Assembly (NCBI RefSeq): GCF_000027125.1
Contig: NC_017626.1
DNA: 64,000 nt
Direction: 5' to 3' (one strand)
Source of the DNA: Escherichia coli 042
GTDB lineage: Bacteria; Pseudomonadota; Gammaproteobacteria; Enterobacterales; Enterobacteriaceae
Within the stretch, counting starts at the first letter, position 1. Each line of letters opens with the position of its first letter. Under the pieces are notes generated by a model. That model was given only the letters and a program-made list of their open reading frames with translations. It had not been told where the DNA came from and did no database searches. The translations under genes and the position numbers were made by a program. Below, in pieces: positions 2,690 to 57,218 of the stretch.

Positions 2690-3367
2690 ATGCAGGAAAA
2701 TAGTCCTTTGCTTCAGCTACAAAACGTAGGATATCTGGTGGGTGATGCGAAGATTCTTAATAACATCAATTTTTCGCTGCGTGCTGGCGAATTTAAGTTA
2801 ATTACCGGTCCTTCTGGTTGTGGCAAAAGTACGCTGCTAAAAATAGTTGCTTCATTGATCAGCCCAACCAGCGGAACGTTACTGTTTGAAGGTGAGGATG
2901 TCAGCACACTAAAGCCAGAAAGCTACCGCCAGCAAGTCTCTTATTGCGCCCAGACGCCGACGCTGTTTGGCGACACGGTATACGATAATCTGATCTTTCC
3001 CTGGCAGATCCGTAACCAACAGCCTGACCCAGCCATTTTTCTCGATTTTCTCGAACGCTTCGCCTTACCGGACACCATTTTGACGAAGAATATCGCCGAG
3101 CTATCTGGTGGTGAAAAACAACGCATCTCATTGATTCGTAACCTGCAATTTATGCCGAAGGTTTTATTGCTGGATGAAATCACCAGTGCGCTGGACGAAA
3201 GTAATAAACATAACGTTAATGAGATGATCCACCGTTATGTGCGCGAGCAAAATATTGCCGTGCTGTGGGTGACACACGATAAAGACGAAATTAATCATGC
3301 GGATAAGGTGATTACACTGCAACCGCATGCCGGAGAAATGCAGGAAGCACGCTATGAACTCGCATAA
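2690..3367 (+). CDS. fetA: ABC transporter ATP-binding protein FetA
   Basis: 225 aa with Walker A GPSGCGKST, ABC signature LSGGEKQR and Walker B LLLDE. Confidence 0.9.
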   Translation: MQENSPLLQLQNVGYLVGDAKILNNINFSLRAGEFKLITGPSGCGKSTLLKIVASLISPTSGTLLFEGEDVSTLKPESYRQQVSYCAQTPTLFGDTVYDNLIFPWQIRNQQPDPAIFLDFLERFALPDTILTKNIAELSGGEKQRISLIRNLQFMPKVLLLDEITSALDESNKHNVNEMIHRYVREQNIAVLWVTHDKDEINHADKVITLQPHAGEMQEARYELA

Positions 3368-9601: not shown

Positions 9602-9609
9602 TGACAGGC

Positions 9610-9725
9610 GTTAGATTGCCTGATGCGCTACGCTTAACAGGCCCACGAGGATCGTGCAATATATTGATTTTGCAAGATTGTGTAGGCCGGATAAGGCGTT
9701 TACGCCGCATCTGGCATGAACAGTG
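9610..9725. repeat. REP-type palindromic units
   Basis: Motifs gcctgatgcgctacgc... and tgtaggccggataaggcgtttacgccgcatctggc directly after the ybbP stop. Confidence 0.6.
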
Positions 9726-9818
9726 TGCATTTTGGCAATAAATATGAAACCAACTGTCATGTCGGTTTTTTTAAAGGCCGAAGGTGGTAAACCTTCGGCC
9801 TTAGCTACGTTTCCTCAG

Positions 9819-9902
9819 TTATTCAATAAACTGACGGATCAGTTCCAGCAGCGCGATTAGCGCCTTAAGAACGATGAGAACTTTATCGAGAAAAGTTTTC
9901 AT
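9819..9902 (-). CDS. candidate type I toxin peptide (27 aa, DinQ/TisB/ZorO-like amphipathic helix)
   Basis: My translation of the minus strand: GGGAG SD, 6 nt, then ATG AAA ACT TTT ... GAA TAA = MKTFLDKVLIVLKALIALLELIRQFIE. Too short for the ORF track. Leu/Ile-rich single helix typical of small membrane-active toxins. Confidence 0.5.
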   Translation of the reverse strand: MKTFLDKVLIVLKALIALLELIRQFIE

Positions 9903-9975
9903 CCGTTGCTCCCTTAAGGGAGAAAGACAATCACAGCTTACCCTTACGTTGCCTGTAACTATGATTTTCTTCATG

Positions 9976-9991
9976 TGCTAGATGAGGACTG
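9976..9991. promoter_or_regulatory. 16-nt element tgctagatgaggactg, identical to the 5' end of the downstream sRNA candidate; predicted antisense target in the toxin 5' UTR
   Basis: Exact 16-nt direct repeat of 10162-10177, ~75-90 nt upstream of the toxin ATG on the toxin-coding strand. Confidence 0.4.
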
Positions 9992-10127
9992 CCTCTCTCC
10001 AAATTAGAGCACCAGAATCAGCACCACCTGTATCCTGACCAGGACTTAAAAGTACTTTTCCGCACTGCGGTAATCCCTTGAGGCAGTATCACTACTAGCG
10101 TCGGGATTGTATCGCCAACATAGCTGT

Positions 10128-10156
10128 TTGAATATGTAGGCATCCTGACTTATAAT
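10128..10156 (+). promoter_or_regulatory. sigma70-type promoter (TTGAAT, 17-bp spacer, TATAAT)
   Basis: -35 TTGAAT at 10128-10133 and -10 TATAAT at 10151-10156 with a 17-bp spacer; near-consensus in an intergenic region. Confidence 0.55.
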
Positions 10157-10162
10157 TCACTT

Positions 10163-10250
10163 GCTAGATGAGGACTGTTTCATTTCTACCCGGAACCACC
10201 AAGTCTTGGGCGGAAAAAATAAAAAAACCGACTGTCATGTCGGTTTTTTT
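10163..10250 (+). ncRNA. candidate small RNA (~88 nt), putative antitoxin of the type I toxin
   Basis: Predicted start ~7 nt after the -10; ends in an intrinsic terminator (accgac-tgtcat-gtcggt stem then T7 at 10244-10250). The first ~16 nt repeat the 9976-9991 element. Confidence 0.5.
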
Positions 10251-10313
10251 ATATCTGTATTCTGGTGCAACCATTCTGTTCTCACGACAATCGCCGTTTC
10301 AGAATACCGTCCA

Positions 10314-11423
<1,110 letters not shown>

Positions 11424-51900: not shown

Positions 51901-52236
51901 ACAAAAACCTTACATTAACGCTGGTTATGTTTAGGGTGGCGTATATTAAGGTTTTTTATGAATTGTGACAGCTTTTTACCATTAATAGGTATGACTATTG
52001 CGGCACGTTATTTTTACACTGGTTATAAAAGTTGCCGTTTGCGTAGAATGTAGACAAAAGCGTGGTGTCAAGGAGGGGCGGTAAACGTCATAGTGAAGAG
52101 GAGTGGTGGCACCGATCAGGTCATCATGTAGTGTAAGCGTCTGGAGGAGGTGAGCAGGGGAGATCATTTTCCCCGTGCTGAACAAAAAGACGGCGTTGCT
52201 GTGGGTACAGGAAGGCTAACTTCATTTCTCTTTAGA

Positions 52237-52773
52237 TTATTTAAGTTTAATATTCAACCAGGAAATAAAGAACGTTAAAATAACAAAGGAAAAAACAATC
52301 AAAGAGACATTCCTGAAAAATACGTGCTCATAAAAAAGATAAAAAACGTACAAAATTGGGCACGCAACTTTCAGGACGTTTATATGTTTAGAATTCTCTT
52401 TATCTTTAAAGTTAAAATTACATAAAAATATAAAGAAATATGAAAGCATGGCTGAAAACATCATTGATAAGGCGCGATATGGCAGTCCTGAATTAAAGGT
52501 TTCGACTCCTAATAATATTGTCGATAGCGTTGCAATTATAATTGCCACTTTTTTACTAGAGGTGAAAGTAACGACAAAAAATATCAATGATATAAATAAG
52601 AAAGAAAAAAATATGTAAATATTTGTTGATATATGTACTTTATGAGGAACTGTAAAATAGGTATAACTGATTGTAATTATGATGGTAATTATTCTGTATA
52701 GCATGCATGCTAACAGGCCAATCAGTAGTTTGTTCGCAAATTTATAAGGGGATTCGCTATTGGTTGATTGCAT
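52237..52773 (-). CDS. hypothetical polytopic membrane protein (178 aa), AT-rich, island gene
   Basis: Four to six hydrophobic segments; Ile/Phe/Lys-rich composition typical of horizontally acquired genes. Confidence 0.5.
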   Translation of the reverse strand: MQSTNSESPYKFANKLLIGLLACMLYRIITIIITISYTYFTVPHKVHISTNIYIFFSFLFISLIFFVVTFTSSKKVAIIIATLSTILLGVETFNSGLPYRALSMMFSAMLSYFFIFLCNFNFKDKENSKHINVLKVACPILYVFYLFYEHVFFRNVSLIVFSFVILTFFISWLNIKLK

Positions 52774-52837
52774 GGTTATTATGCTCTTGAATTGTGTATT
52801 TTATTGGAATGTTTCTTGGTTAACTAAAACAATGCAT

Positions 52838-53266
52838 TTAATAGGTGGTGGTGTAAATATCAATGTCATACTCATTATCACAGACTACTATTACTCTACG
52901 AGTTATGTCAAAAAATAACGTTAAATCATAGGTTCCCTGTTCTCTGAAAATACTCTGCGCAAATGACGTGAAATTATTCCCATTTATAACTATTTTTACT
53001 TTACCTTCATAGATAAGCCAGCAACGAAAACATTCAGCTGTACCAGATAATGTCACTATCTGACTGATTAGAAGATTTATATTTACCGGATGAGGTAAAA
53101 AAAGTCTGTCGTTGAGGCAATCAATATTATGTGTTTGATGAAACTCTTTTCTCATTAATGAAGAGTTATCATATAGCAGGGTTATACTAAACGAGTCAAT
53201 TCCGTCAAGCTTTTGCATAAATTTGTTTGCTTTATAAATAAGCAACTTTGCTTGTGTTTTTGTCAT
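52838..53266 (-). CDS. hypothetical protein (142 aa), island gene
   Basis: ORF-track ORF, AT-rich, same orientation and tight spacing with neighbours. Confidence 0.45.
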   Translation of the reverse strand: MTKTQAKLLIYKANKFMQKLDGIDSFSITLLYDNSSLMRKEFHQTHNIDCLNDRLFLPHPVNINLLISQIVTLSGTAECFRCWLIYEGKVKIVINGNNFTSFAQSIFREQGTYDLTLFFDITRRVIVVCDNEYDIDIYTTTY

Positions 53267-53293
53267 GATGGTGATCTTTTATGCAAGGGGGAA

Positions 53294-53740
53294 TTATTGG
53301 AATTCAAATGTTTTATATTCCTCTGTAATCATCTTTAAACTTAACATAGCCATGTCTCGGGTATCTTCATCATCAGATTGTAGAGAAATATTTAATCCTT
53401 TAATTAAGGTGTTATCGGGAAAAGCCATTGCCAATAATGTATACCAACATCGGACACTTTTTATTGTCAGAGGATTTTCCAGTATGTTGGCGATATTTGA
53501 AGCTATAATGTTTTTATCACACTTGTACAAAAAATCTTCGACCAACTGATATACACCGAAGCCATCACCTTCCCCAAACGATTGTAAAAATAACGGTATG
53601 GCTTCTTCAGCAGGATTTGCAGAAAAATAAAGCCTTACATTGTTATATTTATTGATAAGTTCCTGAGTGATGTCATAATCATTTGGCATAGGTTGGTTTA
53701 GAGCAAGGAATGCTAATGCTTCTTTTTTAGTCATATTCAT
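53294..53740 (-). CDS. hypothetical protein (148 aa); possible orphan immunity protein
   Basis: ORF-track ORF, acidic and largely helical by eye; AT-rich and next to IS/Rhs remnants. Confidence 0.4.
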   Translation of the reverse strand: MNMTKKEALAFLALNQPMPNDYDITQELINKYNNVRLYFSANPAEEAIPLFLQSFGEGDGFGVYQLVEDFLYKCDKNIIASNIANILENPLTIKSVRCWYTLLAMAFPDNTLIKGLNISLQSDDEDTRDMAMLSLKMITEEYKTFEFQ

Positions 53741-53760
53741 AATGGTTAATATTGCTTGCT

Positions 53761-54313
53761 GGAAGAATTAAGGTAAAAATGGTTCATAGACAGAATTAAA
53801 TAGGAAGTCTTGTTTCCAGATAACTTTATCATGAAAAAGAGATTTGGCTTGATGCGTATAAAGATTATGAGGATAAATAGTTTCTCCACCATAAATGATG
53901 TTCTTTCCCGTTACACCGGAGAATTCATTGGCTATAATCTGTCGTTTAAGCCAGTGAATGACTTTACATAAGCATATTAATTTATCCTTAGAATCAGTTG
54001 TGTTAATTTCAGTAAGTTGTAAAATCTTTTCCCCATTATACTCAACTAAATGCCCCGGCTTTATTTCAATTCAACCACAATAACGATCAATGCTACTAAA
54101 CTTTATTCTTCTATTGTTAGGTTTAATGCTGGGCATAAGATAAATTCGATGTGCTACGGCAGGGATCTTTTCTGTTAAGACATTTAATTGCTTAGAGTAT
54201 TCATCTTGTAGTGTAAACCAAATTGAATGTAATTTGTATTTTGAGGCTACAATCGCGAGCCAATTAGACAGTTCCTCGTTCGTGCAAAAAACATTTATCC
54301 TGGCAGTTGCCAT
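53761..54313 (-). pseudogene. frameshifted hypothetical gene (~180 codons in two frames)
   Basis: The 80-aa ORF 54071-54313 stops at 54071, but an open frame continues in another frame to ~53761 (IEIKPGHLVEYNGEKILQLTEINTTDSKDKLICLCK...). Confidence 0.4.
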
Positions 54314-54346
54314 TCGTAATCCTTTTTATATAAGATTGTGTGAATG

Positions 54347-54549
54347 TCACCGAAACAACTTGATATGAATAAAATAGCTAAAGCGAAATGGATGACGTGT
54401 TACTAAAAAACCATTCTGAAAAGGAAGCCTGAATAAACGCGATGACGAAACTTCCACTCTCCATGTTTCATCAGAAAAATAACTAAATTCGATGTGGTTT
54501 TCATATAATCTCATTTCACGTAAGGTTCCGCTACCATAAGGGACCGCAA
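54347..54549 (-). pseudogene. orphan 3' gene fragment abutting the H-repeat end
   Basis: The track ORF 54347-54583 starts inside the element's terminal repeat; only the part outside the element can be native. Confidence 0.3.
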
Positions 54550-54550
54550 T

Positions 54551-55841
54551 CAGGGAAAGATTACGAAAGCCCGCTCCCAGCAAGGACTGACGCCAGATAG
54601 TTTCTGTCCATGGCTGCTTTTCGCATCTTACGTCTTAACCCTGCCTTGAATACCTTATCATTCGTCAAAATATTAATAGCGATGTGCCGTATCCCTGAAA
54701 ATAATTCTGCGGCGTTTCCTCTTCTTATTTTGCAGTCGTCTTCATTCATTACCACGTCCAGACGCCAGTGCAGCTTATTCTCCACGTGCCAGCGGTTTCG
54801 GATTGCTGTGGCGAACTTCTCTGCGGTTAAATCAGCACAACTGATATAATATCTGACCGTCATTTCTGGCTCTTTCTTTTGTTCTGCTATTATTGACCGA
54901 AAGGAGACTGCCACGCATAATTTCTTCAGACCTTTCCATTCAAACGTGAAATCAATAAGTTCATCAGGGACATCGCAAACAATGTGAAGACGGATTTCTT
55001 CTCTGCCGTGACTCTTTTCACTAATTGCGTAACTGTCATGCTCTGGATTATTTAATTCTTTCAGTGGGAATTTTTCCTCAAAGGCTTTATTAAGCCGCCC
55101 CTGATTTCCTTTTACAGCGAATAAATAATCACCGCCCTGTTTTTGTATCTTCTCTGCAATATCTTTCTGGCAACCCATCGCATCAGTTGTGATGATTTTT
55201 CCTTTAATATCCAGCATGTTAAGAAGTTCAGGGATAGCTGTAATCTCATTTGATTTCTCATCCGTCCTGATCTGTCCGATGACCAGACTGTGCATTGTTG
55301 AGAACGCACTAATGACATGAATCGCTCCCTTGCGGCGACTCTTGTCATAAGAATGCCGGAGTGTTTTTCCATCAATTGCGATGACGTCTTTATCATCTGA
55401 AGAATGGCAGTCACGCATCCAGTTAATAAAGCACTCGTGAAATTTTGCAGGACTGATACAGGATACAACTCTGGCAATAGTATCGTGAACAGGAATACCA
55501 TTATCAAAATCACCATATTGCTTCAAAAAATCGAGATGTGTTTCCCCAAAATCCTCTATATCTTCCCAGCCTTCTGCACCCGAAATAACGGCACAAATAG
55601 TCAACAGTAGAATATCCGATAATTTATGTTCCACTTTCCAGGCTTGTCTGTAATCGGGGATAATAGAAATATGTTCCATCAATTTTTTAAGTTCCATTTT
55701 GTTCTCCTTAATTATGTAAGGAGTATTTGATCATGTATAAGCAATAAAAAACAGCTTTAGGTAATGAGGAATATCTCAATTTGTAAACATAAAATGCGAA
55801 TTATTTAGTACAAAAAGTGTACTTCTGATGATCTTTCCCTG
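54551..55841 (-). mobile_element. H-repeat / ISAs1-family insertion sequence, copy 1 (apparently intact)
   Basis: ~1.29 kb bounded by inverted repeats cagggaaagat (54551-54561) and atctttccctg (55831-55841); contains one long transposase ORF. Confidence 0.8.
54561..55697 (-). CDS. H-repeat-associated (ISAs1-family) transposase, 378 aa
   Basis: 378-aa ORF of the size and character of E. coli Rhs-associated H-repeat proteins; a second disrupted copy lies at 56.7-58.6 kb. Confidence 0.8.
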
Positions 55842-56045
55842 GGAGGTGATACTGACCGTCTGCCCGAATTCGTCATAGAGGAAAAACGTCGCGCCGCCCT
55901 CCGGGTCAATTTCACACACCGGAAGCCGGTCTTCACTGAAGCGGATAATGGTGGTATGCCCCAGCGAATCAGTCATCTCCAGCTCATGGCAGAAATCATT
56001 CCATACAAAGTGGTAGTCGTAGTACCCGCCGTCGCCCAACAGCAA
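55842..56045 (-). pseudogene. YD-repeat (Rhs-like) gene fragment truncated by the H-repeat
   Basis: YD-type repeat signature (...CEIDPEGGATFFLYDEFGQTVSITSQ) runs into the element end; no upstream Rhs core. Confidence 0.45.
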
Positions 56046-56062
56046 TCAATCATCGAATCAAA

Positions 56063-56524
56063 TTAACTTGACAAGGTTTTTATTTTTTCGTGTTCGAAAA
56101 ATAAATGTAGCATAGCGTCATTAATATTACCGCCTATAATACAAAAATAGTTATCAAAACCACCATAAAGAGCACCATCATCTGAAATAAAATATGTCAT
56201 ATGCTCAGAAAAACCAACACCAACAGGACATAAACGCTTATTGACCAATGGTTCATAGACTTCAGTTATCCATTTAGAGTCTATCCAACCAGCAGCTTTT
56301 ATTGGATCAAAATCGGATTTATCATACTCATTAGGATCTGAATAAGATTCATGCCGTACTATCAACCCTCCAAACTCTGATAAAAAATCACAAATAATTT
56401 CATTAACAAAATATTTCTTAATGGATAAACACTTTATATATTTATCTATGTTTTCTTTTCTGCCATAGTGCCATCCATTTTGCAACAGGACACTCATCAC
56501 TTGTTTATTCGTTATATGATTCAT
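56063..56524 (-). CDS. candidate immunity protein for the upstream deaminase-like toxin tip (153 aa)
   Basis: Starts 2 nt after the toxin-fragment stop (TAATTATG), the usual toxin-immunity coupling; family not assigned from sequence alone. Confidence 0.45.
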   Translation of the reverse strand: MNHITNKQVMSVLLQNGWHYGRKENIDKYIKCLSIKKYFVNEIICDFLSEFGGLIVRHESYSDPNEYDKSDFDPIKAAGWIDSKWITEVYEPLVNKRLCPVGVGFSEHMTYFISDDGALYGGFDNYFCIIGGNINDAMLHLFFEHEKIKTLSS

Positions 56525-56526
56525 AA

Positions 56527-56704
56527 TTACCCCGTTAATACATCAATTCCTAAATATTTGAAAATTTCCTGACAGTTTCTACAGTTCGGAAAAGCACTTC
56601 CATCACCAGTATGAACTGTAGCCATTTCCAAATCATGCAACGATGAATTATCTTTGAGAGCTTTATTCACCGCATCTATTTCAGCACAATTATTAACAGC
56701 CCAA
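56527..56704 (-). pseudogene. truncated C-terminal toxin domain with nucleotide deaminase-like motifs
   Basis: Native ~59 codons after the IS boundary: ...NNCAEIDAVNKAL...(33 aa)...AFPNCRNCQEIF..., i.e. a [C/H]AE helix plus CxxC pair with deaminase-fold spacing; the 5' part is replaced by the H-repeat. Confidence 0.5.
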
Positions 56705-57218
56705 GGCAAGATTACGAAAGCCCGCACCCCGCAAGGACTGCCGCCAGGTAGTTTCTGTCCATGGCTGCTTTTCGCATCTTACGTCTTAACCCTGCCTTGA
56801 ATACCTTATCATTCGTTAAAATATTAATAGCGATGTGCCGTATCCCTGAAAATAATTCTGCGGCGTTTCCTCTTCTTATTTTGCAGTCGTCTTCATTCAT
56901 TACCACGTCCAGACGCCAGTGCAGCTTATTCTCCACGTGCCAGTGGTTTCGGATTGCTGTGGCGAACTTCTCTGCGGTTAAATCAGCAGAACTGATATAA
57001 TATCTGACCGTCATTTCTGGCTCTTTCTTTTGTTCTGCTATTATTGACCGAAAGGAGACTGCCACGCATAATTTCTTCAGACCTTTCCATTCAAACGTGA
57101 AATCAATAAGTTCATCAGGGACATCGCAAACAATGTGAAGACGGATTTCTTCTCTGCCGTGACTCTTTTCACTCATTGCGTAACTGTTATGCTCTGGATT
57201 ATTGGTAATGACTCCAAC

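Follow-up and report, generated by a model that had tools for sequence, protein, structure and literature searches.

The H-repeats of Escherichia coli K-12 (H-rpt, or ISEc1) lie downstream of rhs toxin and immunity genes, and multiple as well as truncated copies can occur within one Rhs element. Members of the ISAs1 family, to which ISEc1 is assigned, generate target duplications of 8–10 bp. According to one genome paper, transposition of H-rpt has not been observed (PMC3032704), and in the Salmonella group D2 O-antigen cluster an H-repeat remnant marks a recombination junction (PMC3715488). Here we examine an intact H-repeat (copy 1) in the window, a stretch of 64 000 nucleotides from E. coli 042 (contig NC_017626.1). 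Copy 1 belongs to a relic island between nfrB and cusS, the interval designated Rhs locus 4 by Jackson et al. 2009 (Table 3, PMC2935791), and directly separates the truncated remains of two unrelated genes. We propose that copy 1 is probably a resident H-repeat of a decayed Rhs element, with junctions that arose by RecA-type recombination between H-repeat copies.

The features of the island are given below, from Tox-GHH2 onwards in the direction of transcription.

52043..63586, minus strand: whole relic island, Rhs locus 4, between nfrB and cusS, 11.5 kb (boundaries from comparison with the empty K-12 site)
62897-63196, minus strand: Tox-GHH2 nuclease stump
61831-62871 and 60679-61719, minus strand: two beta-propeller paralogues
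60311-60625, minus strand: Tox-PAAR-like gene
59269-60279, minus strand: third beta-propeller paralogue
58865-59176, minus strand: KAS-like C-terminal stump
56702..58769, minus strand: H-repeat copy 2, ~96% identical to copy 1, terminus mutated to CAAGG
57204-57971: IS1 inside copy 2, 768 bp, with a 9-bp duplication; inactivates copy 2 here
56527..56701, minus strand: C-terminal stump of a YwqJ-like deaminase toxin, 5' side cut by copy 2 (weak Pfam YwqJ-deaminase match including a PCxxC-type end)
56063..56524, minus strand: intact SUKH-3 immunity gene, 153 aa (Pfam SUKH-3, 5e-12)
55842..56045, minus strand: orphan rhs stump, 68 codons of YD-shell repeats, truncated at both ends (PDB Rhs matches, Salmonella homology, GC content)
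54551..55841, minus strand: intact ISEc1/H-repeat copy 1, 1291 bp (inverted repeats, transposase ORF, Pfam, K-12 identity)
54551-54561 and 55831-55841: terminal inverted repeats of copy 1
54561-55697, minus strand: transposase CDS of copy 1, 378 aa
54347..54550, minus strand: 3' stump of a 151-aa gene, 67 codons plus stop, the 5' 84 codons gone (intact relative in a cryptic-clade Escherichia)
about 53768-54313, minus strand: disrupted 181-aa gene
53294-53740, minus strand: 148-aa ORF
52838-53266, minus strand: 142-aa ORF
52237-52773, minus strand: 178-aa ORF

Copy 1 begins with CAGGGAAAGAT and ends with ATCTTTCCCTG; CAGGGAAAGAT is present at both ends in inverted orientation (11/11 positions match), and the inverted repeats begin with CAGGG. 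The transposase is the sole ORF of the element and matches the Pfam families DDE_Tnp_1_assoc (1e-33) and DDE_Tnp_1 (6e-30). In near-identical genomes the equivalent element carries the RefSeq label "ISAs1-like element ISEc1 family transposase", and its length fits the 1.2–1.5 kb range of the ISAs1 family. The K-12 copies (yhhI at RhsB, ydcC at RhsE, ybfL/ybfD at RhsC) share the 1291-bp length, the CAGGG ends, the 378-aa DDE transposase and 96–97% of nucleotides with copy 1 (96.8% across all 1291 nt for H-rptB/yhhI). They also share its position downstream of rhs toxin and immunity genes, its agreement with those genes in orientation and the lack of a target duplication. In every structural respect, copy 1 is thus an ISEc1/ISAs1 element, the one exception being the target-site duplication, which is absent from its sister copies too. 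The contexts differ in that copy 1 is not at the distal edge of the island but ~2.4 kb further in, and directly truncates an orphan rhs fragment; unlike the K-12 Rhs elements, the window has neither a main rhs gene nor vgrG. A 13-mer identical to the inverted repeat also occurs at 2991–3003, within a conserved core gene, and was treated as coincidence.

In K-12 the site is empty, with nfrB and cusS 149 bp apart, whereas intact alleles of locus 4 occur in F138 (cusS-vgrG-DcrB-related-RHS (1505 aa)-...-ISAs1-nfrB) and O157:H7 FRIK2455 (cusS-vgrG-DcrB-related-RHS (1616 aa)-orphan metallopeptidase toxin-...-ISAs1-nfrB). The window allele has the same chromosomal site, the same 116-bp island end by nfrB (52043–52158), the same H-repeat orientation and likewise polymorphic toxin/immunity cargo. 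The intact alleles, however, encode vgrG, a DcrB/Eag chaperone and a 1505–1616-aa Rhs protein, and have a single H-repeat flush with the backbone, whereas the window allele has two internal H-repeats and unrelated cargo, and its island lacks the T6SS delivery genes (vgrG and the Eag/DcrB chaperone). A tblastn search of the window with four full-length E. coli Rhs proteins recovered just a small stump at 55800–55982, and the longest ORF of the window is that of NfrA (997 aa). The earlier note had set the missing Rhs core against the classical association of H-repeats with Rhs loci. The core is indeed absent from the window, but the Rhs link is present nonetheless; an H-repeat without a Rhs core is no paradox here because the element sits in Rhs locus 4. 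By its position and its variable toxin, immunity and orphan cargo, the island is a Rhs element. It is a relic rather than a functional one, with a 68-codon stump in place of a full-length rhs gene.

The outer edge of this locus is widespread. The junction between the H-repeat and the nfrB backbone was found in 2,480 of 5,426 E. coli genomes (~46%); in both F138 and O157, the transposase-3' end of the H-repeat adjoins the equivalent of window position 52158. Cargo junctions are less uniform: the F138-type junction between cargo and IS occurred in only 531 genomes, compared with 2,480 for the IS/backbone junction, and O157 has a third, different one. It is therefore normal for an H-repeat linked to Rhs to have flanks that do not match. 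The arms of the island in the window were present in about 150 of the 5,426 genomes (~3%) at ≥99% identity, and the window allele is a relic, in the minority at a locus that is very common in its H-repeat-terminated form. Four such loci were inspected directly; three had the layout of the window, and the fourth (strain CB6837) was a variant with a single ISEc1. The layout is not an assembly artefact, because the stumps on either side of copy 1 recur in 147 and 151 complete E. coli genomes.

At 52152–52176, where F138 and O157 have their IS end, CAGGGGAGATCATTTTCCCCGTG is possibly an inverted-repeat relic; no allele linking this state with the IS-end state was present in the collection.

The left flank of copy 1 is the remaining 3' part of the 151-aa gene. 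An intact version turned up in Escherichia sp. MOD1-EC7003, a member of the cryptic clade (L015:781–1236), when species-representative genomes were scanned, and an exact-word protein search identified a longer but frameshifted version in a Logan contig (L005). In both, homology to the window starts at 54550, the base adjoining the IS, and the upstream continuation reads ...LLIDIKQDIQEQMT immediately before IAIPYG. The left fragment occurs in 151 complete E. coli genomes, single-copy in each and ≥99% identical, and the upstream half had no match in 5,426 complete E. coli genomes. Judging from context, the 151-aa gene is probably an orphan immunity-type gene, and its neighbours in the left array (181, 148, 142 and 178 aa) may be immunity genes on the same grounds; none of the five proteins matched a Pfam or NCBIfam family. 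In MOD1-EC7003, an Imm57 immunity gene lies between two internally deleted H-repeat derivatives, one of which truncates a homologue of the 148-aa ORF. A 791-bp metagenome contig (L006), in which the start of the 148-aa gene is joined to the end of the 151-aa gene, is permuted and was set aside as a probable assembly artefact.

The right flank is of a different origin. The YD stump has a GC content of 54%, compared with ~32% in neighbouring DNA. In the PDB it matches the Rhs protein 7q97 best (E 3e-13), and Tse5, Tre23 and further T6SS Rhs cores rank next; the best-scoring stretches all fall in the shell interior and none at the conserved end. The stump was found in 147 complete E. coli genomes, single-copy in each and ≥99% identical. 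It has no DNA-level relatives among other E. coli rhs genes, and is only ~26–33% identical to E. coli Rhs proteins, a range that also holds for those of F138 and O157. A word-indexed protein search with the stump returned E. coli fragments only, which proved a false negative: Salmonella homologues were reached via the neighbouring SUKH-3 gene, whose homologue in Salmonella enterica shares 84% amino acid identity and the same module order.

The Salmonella enterica locus (GCA_037560425.1, L017) contains, in order, a deaminase toxin tip, SUKH-3, a 258-aa orphan rhs (YD repeats plus an AHH toxin domain) and Imm11. Window positions 56706–56061 align with 9819–10464 of this locus at 83% identity, and positions 56037–55841 align with the start of the orphan rhs at 82% nucleotide identity. 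A second orphan rhs of the same locus matches 55993–55843 at 90% nucleotide identity. Homology to both orphans stops at 55841–55843, and in both the YD frame continues beyond the position at which the window sequence changes to CAGGGAAAG...; at the other end, the Salmonella deaminase reading frame runs on upstream of the window breakpoint. The two arrays are thus alike in the succession of deaminase tip, SUKH-3 and an orphan rhs opening with the same YD sequence (82–90% nucleotide identity), and differ in that the orphan rhs is complete in Salmonella, with YD repeats, AHH toxin domain and Imm11. No H-repeats were found in the 20 kb retrieved from the Salmonella locus.

The earlier note had placed copy 1 between two unrelated gene fragments and proposed a search for their complementary halves. 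All features lie within 1 nt of where it had put them, and both counterparts were located: the 151-aa gene is whole in cryptic-clade Escherichia, and the continuation of the YD stump is found in Salmonella. These continuations (L015 and L005 on one side, L017 on the other) belong to two different genes, so the flanks do not form one continuous gene, and their missing halves are absent from E. coli. With homology stopping at the IS termini on both sides, the element must have been the site of one or more deletions or recombination events. The missing parts have been lost rather than relocated, because the stumps are single-copy in every carrier and none of the 5,426 E. coli genomes has a match to the upstream half of the left gene.

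Target-site duplication proved far less informative than these breakpoints. The sequence around copy 1 reads ...GGGACCGCAAT before the IS and GGAGGTGATAC... after it, and no direct repeat of any length flanks the element, including the 8–10 bp duplication sought around 54551–55841; the earlier observation of no duplication at its ends was correct. IS1 within copy 2 served as a positive control and shows a perfect 9-bp duplication (TGGATTATT). None of nine independent full-length ISEc1 copies (9/9) had a flanking repeat: window copies 1 and 2, K-12 H-rptB and H-rptE, the RhsE-site copy L009, L010 (on a small S. flexneri replicon), L012, and the nfrB copies of F138 and O157:H7. Three of the nine came from records labelled as plasmids. 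The proposed comparison with Rhs-associated H-repeats of K-12 thus gave the same picture, H-rptB and H-rptE likewise being without a duplication, and a literature search returned no stated duplication length for ISEc1 in the papers it covered. Since all nine copies lack one, the absence at copy 1 is weak evidence and not diagnostic, and the argument that the earlier note built on it is itself weak. It speaks against a recent simple insertion only, not against membership in the ISAs1 family. That copy 1 is not a simple insertion follows from the double truncation at the IS termini rather than from the missing duplication, and on that ground the preference for a rearrangement or deletion holds.

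Plasmid-borne ISEc1 copies were considered as clean insertion controls and dropped, as four that were inspected had no usable empty site and lay in chromosomal-type or Rhs/SymE-array contexts. Any part of ISEc1 was found in just 25 of 72,556 plasmid records, many of which are chromosome-sized or chromosome-derived. We saw no sign of recent ISEc1 mobility.

Copy 2 is likewise flanked by unrelated stumps, and in relatives it lacks IS1 and carries an internal stop codon instead. The two copies are in direct orientation and bracket an 860-bp piece corresponding to an internal section of the Salmonella-type Rhs orphan array. They differ at 49 sites. A query joining the left arm to the right arm retrieved CB6837, one strain deposited twice, in which a single ISEc1 lies between left arm and right arm (span 3000+1291 bp) and the DNA between the copies is missing. 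Its ISEc1 equals copy 1 at 37/37 informative sites (positions 3–1151) and copy 2 at 12/12 sites (positions 1208–1278). The CB6837 element is a hybrid produced by one clean homologous crossover between copies 1 and 2, and homologous recombination between H-repeats has therefore taken place at this locus. Such a crossover removes, or in reverse inserts, the YD–SUKH-3–deaminase segment, and leaves unmatched flanks and no duplication. CB6837 need not be a derived deletion and could also represent the ancestral single-copy state; the island arms differed by singleton SNPs only, which gave no polarity. H-repeat copies more widely are mosaic, the right-terminal ~250 bp occurring in 3–4 types shuffled among copies.

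We therefore consider it rather likely that the junctions of copy 1 were produced by recombination between H-repeats, in events that would have been of the same type as the CB6837 crossover. Host homologous recombination would have acted between H-repeats in direct orientation within the toxin/immunity array. DNA between two H-repeat copies may have been lost in successive deletions; alternatively, a circle carrying one H-repeat and the 860-bp segment may have integrated into the resident copy of a CB6837-like ancestor. Either course would entail loss of the remaining orphan rhs, its toxin tip and immunity gene, together with the 5' half of the 151-aa gene. Deletion and integration fit equally well, and the arm SNPs did not separate them. 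No ancestor of the window allele and no second H-repeat-bearing donor with the same YD/IS junction was found, so the specific events and their order are reconstructed. The target in its uninterrupted form looks like the IS terminus at two of the junctions: CCCGG/CCGGA compared with CAGGG at the right end of copy 1, and CCTTGG at the left end of copy 2. Such terminus-like targets could also reflect illegitimate joining by way of microhomology, or a preference of the transposase for such sites.

The last of these leads to a different account, in which the transposase itself catalysed the rearrangement through one-ended adjacent deletions or intramolecular transposition, with no need of a second copy or RecA and no duplication left behind. 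Copy 1 has the requisite intact DDE transposase and good inverted repeats, the targets at two junctions look like IS termini, and the neighbour fused to the same IS end varies between alleles (position 54550 in the window; in F138 and O157, the counterpart of 52158), which looks like nested adjacent deletions. Yet ISEc1 gives no sign of recent mobility, with 0/9 copies bearing a duplication and 25/72,556 plasmid records containing any of it, H-rpt transposition is described as not observed (PMC3032704), and the sole event caught at this locus, in CB6837, was a homologous crossover inside the IS. We regard transposase-catalysed rearrangement as unlikely. Less likely still is a simple insertion, in which the two stumps were already joined by IS-independent decay of the array and ISEc1 then landed between them. 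With 0/9 copies showing a duplication, its absence does not exclude transposition, and orphan arrays do gather truncated fragments without any IS: the 5' ends of the orphan rhs differ between the window and the two Salmonella copies with no IS nearby. Such an insertion would nevertheless have had to land with nucleotide precision on a pre-existing junction, since both homologies stop at the IS termini, and the coincidence would have to be repeated at copy 2 with its own unrelated stumps. Moreover, among 5,426 E. coli genomes there was no IS-free one in which the stumps abut.

The two direct H-repeats around the 860-bp Salmonella-type section also bring to mind a composite transposon, in which copy 2, the deaminase stump, SUKH-3, the YD stump and copy 1 moved as one unit. 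The outer ends carry no duplication, however (GGACCGCAAT on one side, ACAGCAAACT on the other), and the two outer flanks do not add up to a single gene, the stump of the 151-aa gene facing the region downstream of the KAS-like stump. The middle segment is single-copy and confined to this locus, with no second genomic site found. On the missing outer duplication and the single-copy cargo, we rejected this reading as highly improbable.

Recombination between H-repeats, the origin we favour, places copy 1 in familiar company. Deletion between direct IS repeats and the D2 junction are of the same kind, with unmatched flanks, no duplication and, in CB6837, a hybrid IS. Copy 1 would be another instance of IS-mediated deletion by direct-repeat recombination, with no difference in kind. 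The components and the proposed mechanism are of established types, and this is ordinary, already understood genome decay. The locus itself is of little significance, a textbook-style case of IS erosion and reshuffling at a polymorphic-toxin locus. Its value is that of a worked case: both missing halves were identified in other species, an isolate preserves the predicted product of IS-by-IS recombination, and the absence of a target duplication was shown to be uninformative for ISEc1.

The only mildly new point left by the data concerns the role of H-repeats in Rhs elements. We tentatively raise the possibility that the H-repeat acts as a fixed distal homology arm and the rhs core as the proximal one, toxin/immunity cassettes between them being swapped, captured and lost by homologous recombination. 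When the two boundary IS copies were compared, 25 differences fell within the cargo-proximal 250 bp and 25 in the 1,040 bp elsewhere, an approximately fourfold density. This cargo-proximal divergence fits the arm model, as do the fixed IS/backbone junction (2,480 genomes), the polymorphic cargo junctions (531 of F138 type, another in O157), the mosaic copies and the CB6837 hybrid. If correct, the model would account for the persistence of H-repeats at the outer edge of Rhs elements, the absence of target duplications and the near-absence of movement. The contrast between one fixed backbone junction, shared by 46% of E. coli, and variable cargo junctions is a hint that Rhs cassettes may be exchanged with H-repeats as recombination anchors.

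The left end of H-repeat copy 2 departs from the expected terminus, and the copy carries a further insertion.

56696-56710, left terminus of copy 2 (copy on the minus strand), CAAGG instead of CAGGG
57204-57971, IS1 of 768 bp, inside copy 2

Because in Salmonella the uninterrupted deaminase target has CCTTGG where this left end lies, the junction is ambiguous by ~5 nt. At the right junction of copy 1, the intact ISEc1, the target is CCCGG/CCGGA versus CAGGG, a weaker resemblance than at copy 2. The likeness of target to terminus at these two ends could reflect either microhomology joining or target preference. A 9-bp target duplication, TGGATTATT, flanks the IS1, its two copies being identical (57195-57203 and 57972-57980). 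Among the matches listed, the closest complete genomes carry copy 2 without IS1 but with an internal stop codon.

Short sequences resembling H-repeat termini were found at two further places.

52152-52176, CAGGGGAGATCATTTTCCCCGTG, similar to two H-repeat termini fused
L005 440-485 and L015 ~725-760, short sequence 5' of the intact 151-aa gene, CTTTCCCTGATTTAATGCTTTCGTAATCT in L005

CAGGGGAGATCATTTTCCCCGTG lies where an H-repeat end meets the nfrB backbone in strains F138 and O157, and in the 2,480 genomes with that junction. It may be a scar left by a boundary H-repeat since lost or, alternatively, an IR-like target. In the Logan contig L005, CTTTCCCTGATTTAATGCTTTCGTAATCT brings together two parts of the terminal inverted repeat of the H-repeat; the short sequence upstream of the 151-aa gene is probably an old H-repeat scar. 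The Escherichia sp. MOD1-EC7003 contig (L015) additionally holds an Imm57 immunity gene between two internally deleted H-repeat derivatives (1989-2850), in which the 5' 87 bp of the IS are joined to approximately position 428; the first derivative cuts the homologue of the 148-aa ORF found in the window. This arrangement looks like H-repeat-flanked immunity cargo.

Beyond copy 2, the island contains the following features.

58865-59176, 103-aa ORF, NCBIfam PRK06147 (E 1.6e-8)
59269-60279, 60679-61719 and 61831-62871, three paralogues with beta-propeller-like products, 336-346 aa (WD40/YVTN/BNR-like in RefSeq)
62897-63196, Tox-GHH2 nuclease stump

The 103-aa ORF, in a region of 52% GC (58770-59176), is another gene stump, ~95 bp from the right end of copy 2; it matches a 3-oxoacyl-ACP-synthase-like family over the 73 C-terminal residues only. 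Such a stump is odd for a toxin/immunity island. The beta-propeller-like paralogues, two following the Tox-GHH2 nuclease stump and one a Tox-PAAR-like gene, gave no significant Pfam match and may represent an uncharacterised immunity family.

Elsewhere, SymE-type toxin genes recur in or beside Rhs orphan arrays of Salmonella and Xenorhabdus, and also on a small S. flexneri replicon carrying ISEc1 (set L010, L017 and L019). A 791-bp ENA metagenome contig (L006) joins window positions 53828-53620 to 54482-53890 via an 11-bp overlap, creating a chimeric 79-aa ORF (P0003). The contig could represent a segment of ~860 bp in tandem or circular form, or else an assembly artefact. For the YD stump, the 68-codon orphan rhs fragment, word-indexed protein search returned no Salmonella match. 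Since an NCBI assembly contains a Salmonella orphan rhs apparently highly similar to it in protein, negatives of this search are untrustworthy for short repeat-rich queries.

At Rhs locus 3 (ybbP to selU/ybbB), the RhsD site is vacant: ~700 bp devoid of long ORFs (9608-10311) stand in place of the 7.3-kb K-12 RhsD element. Two classical Rhs loci thus fall within the window, this empty site and the relic at nfrB-cusS.
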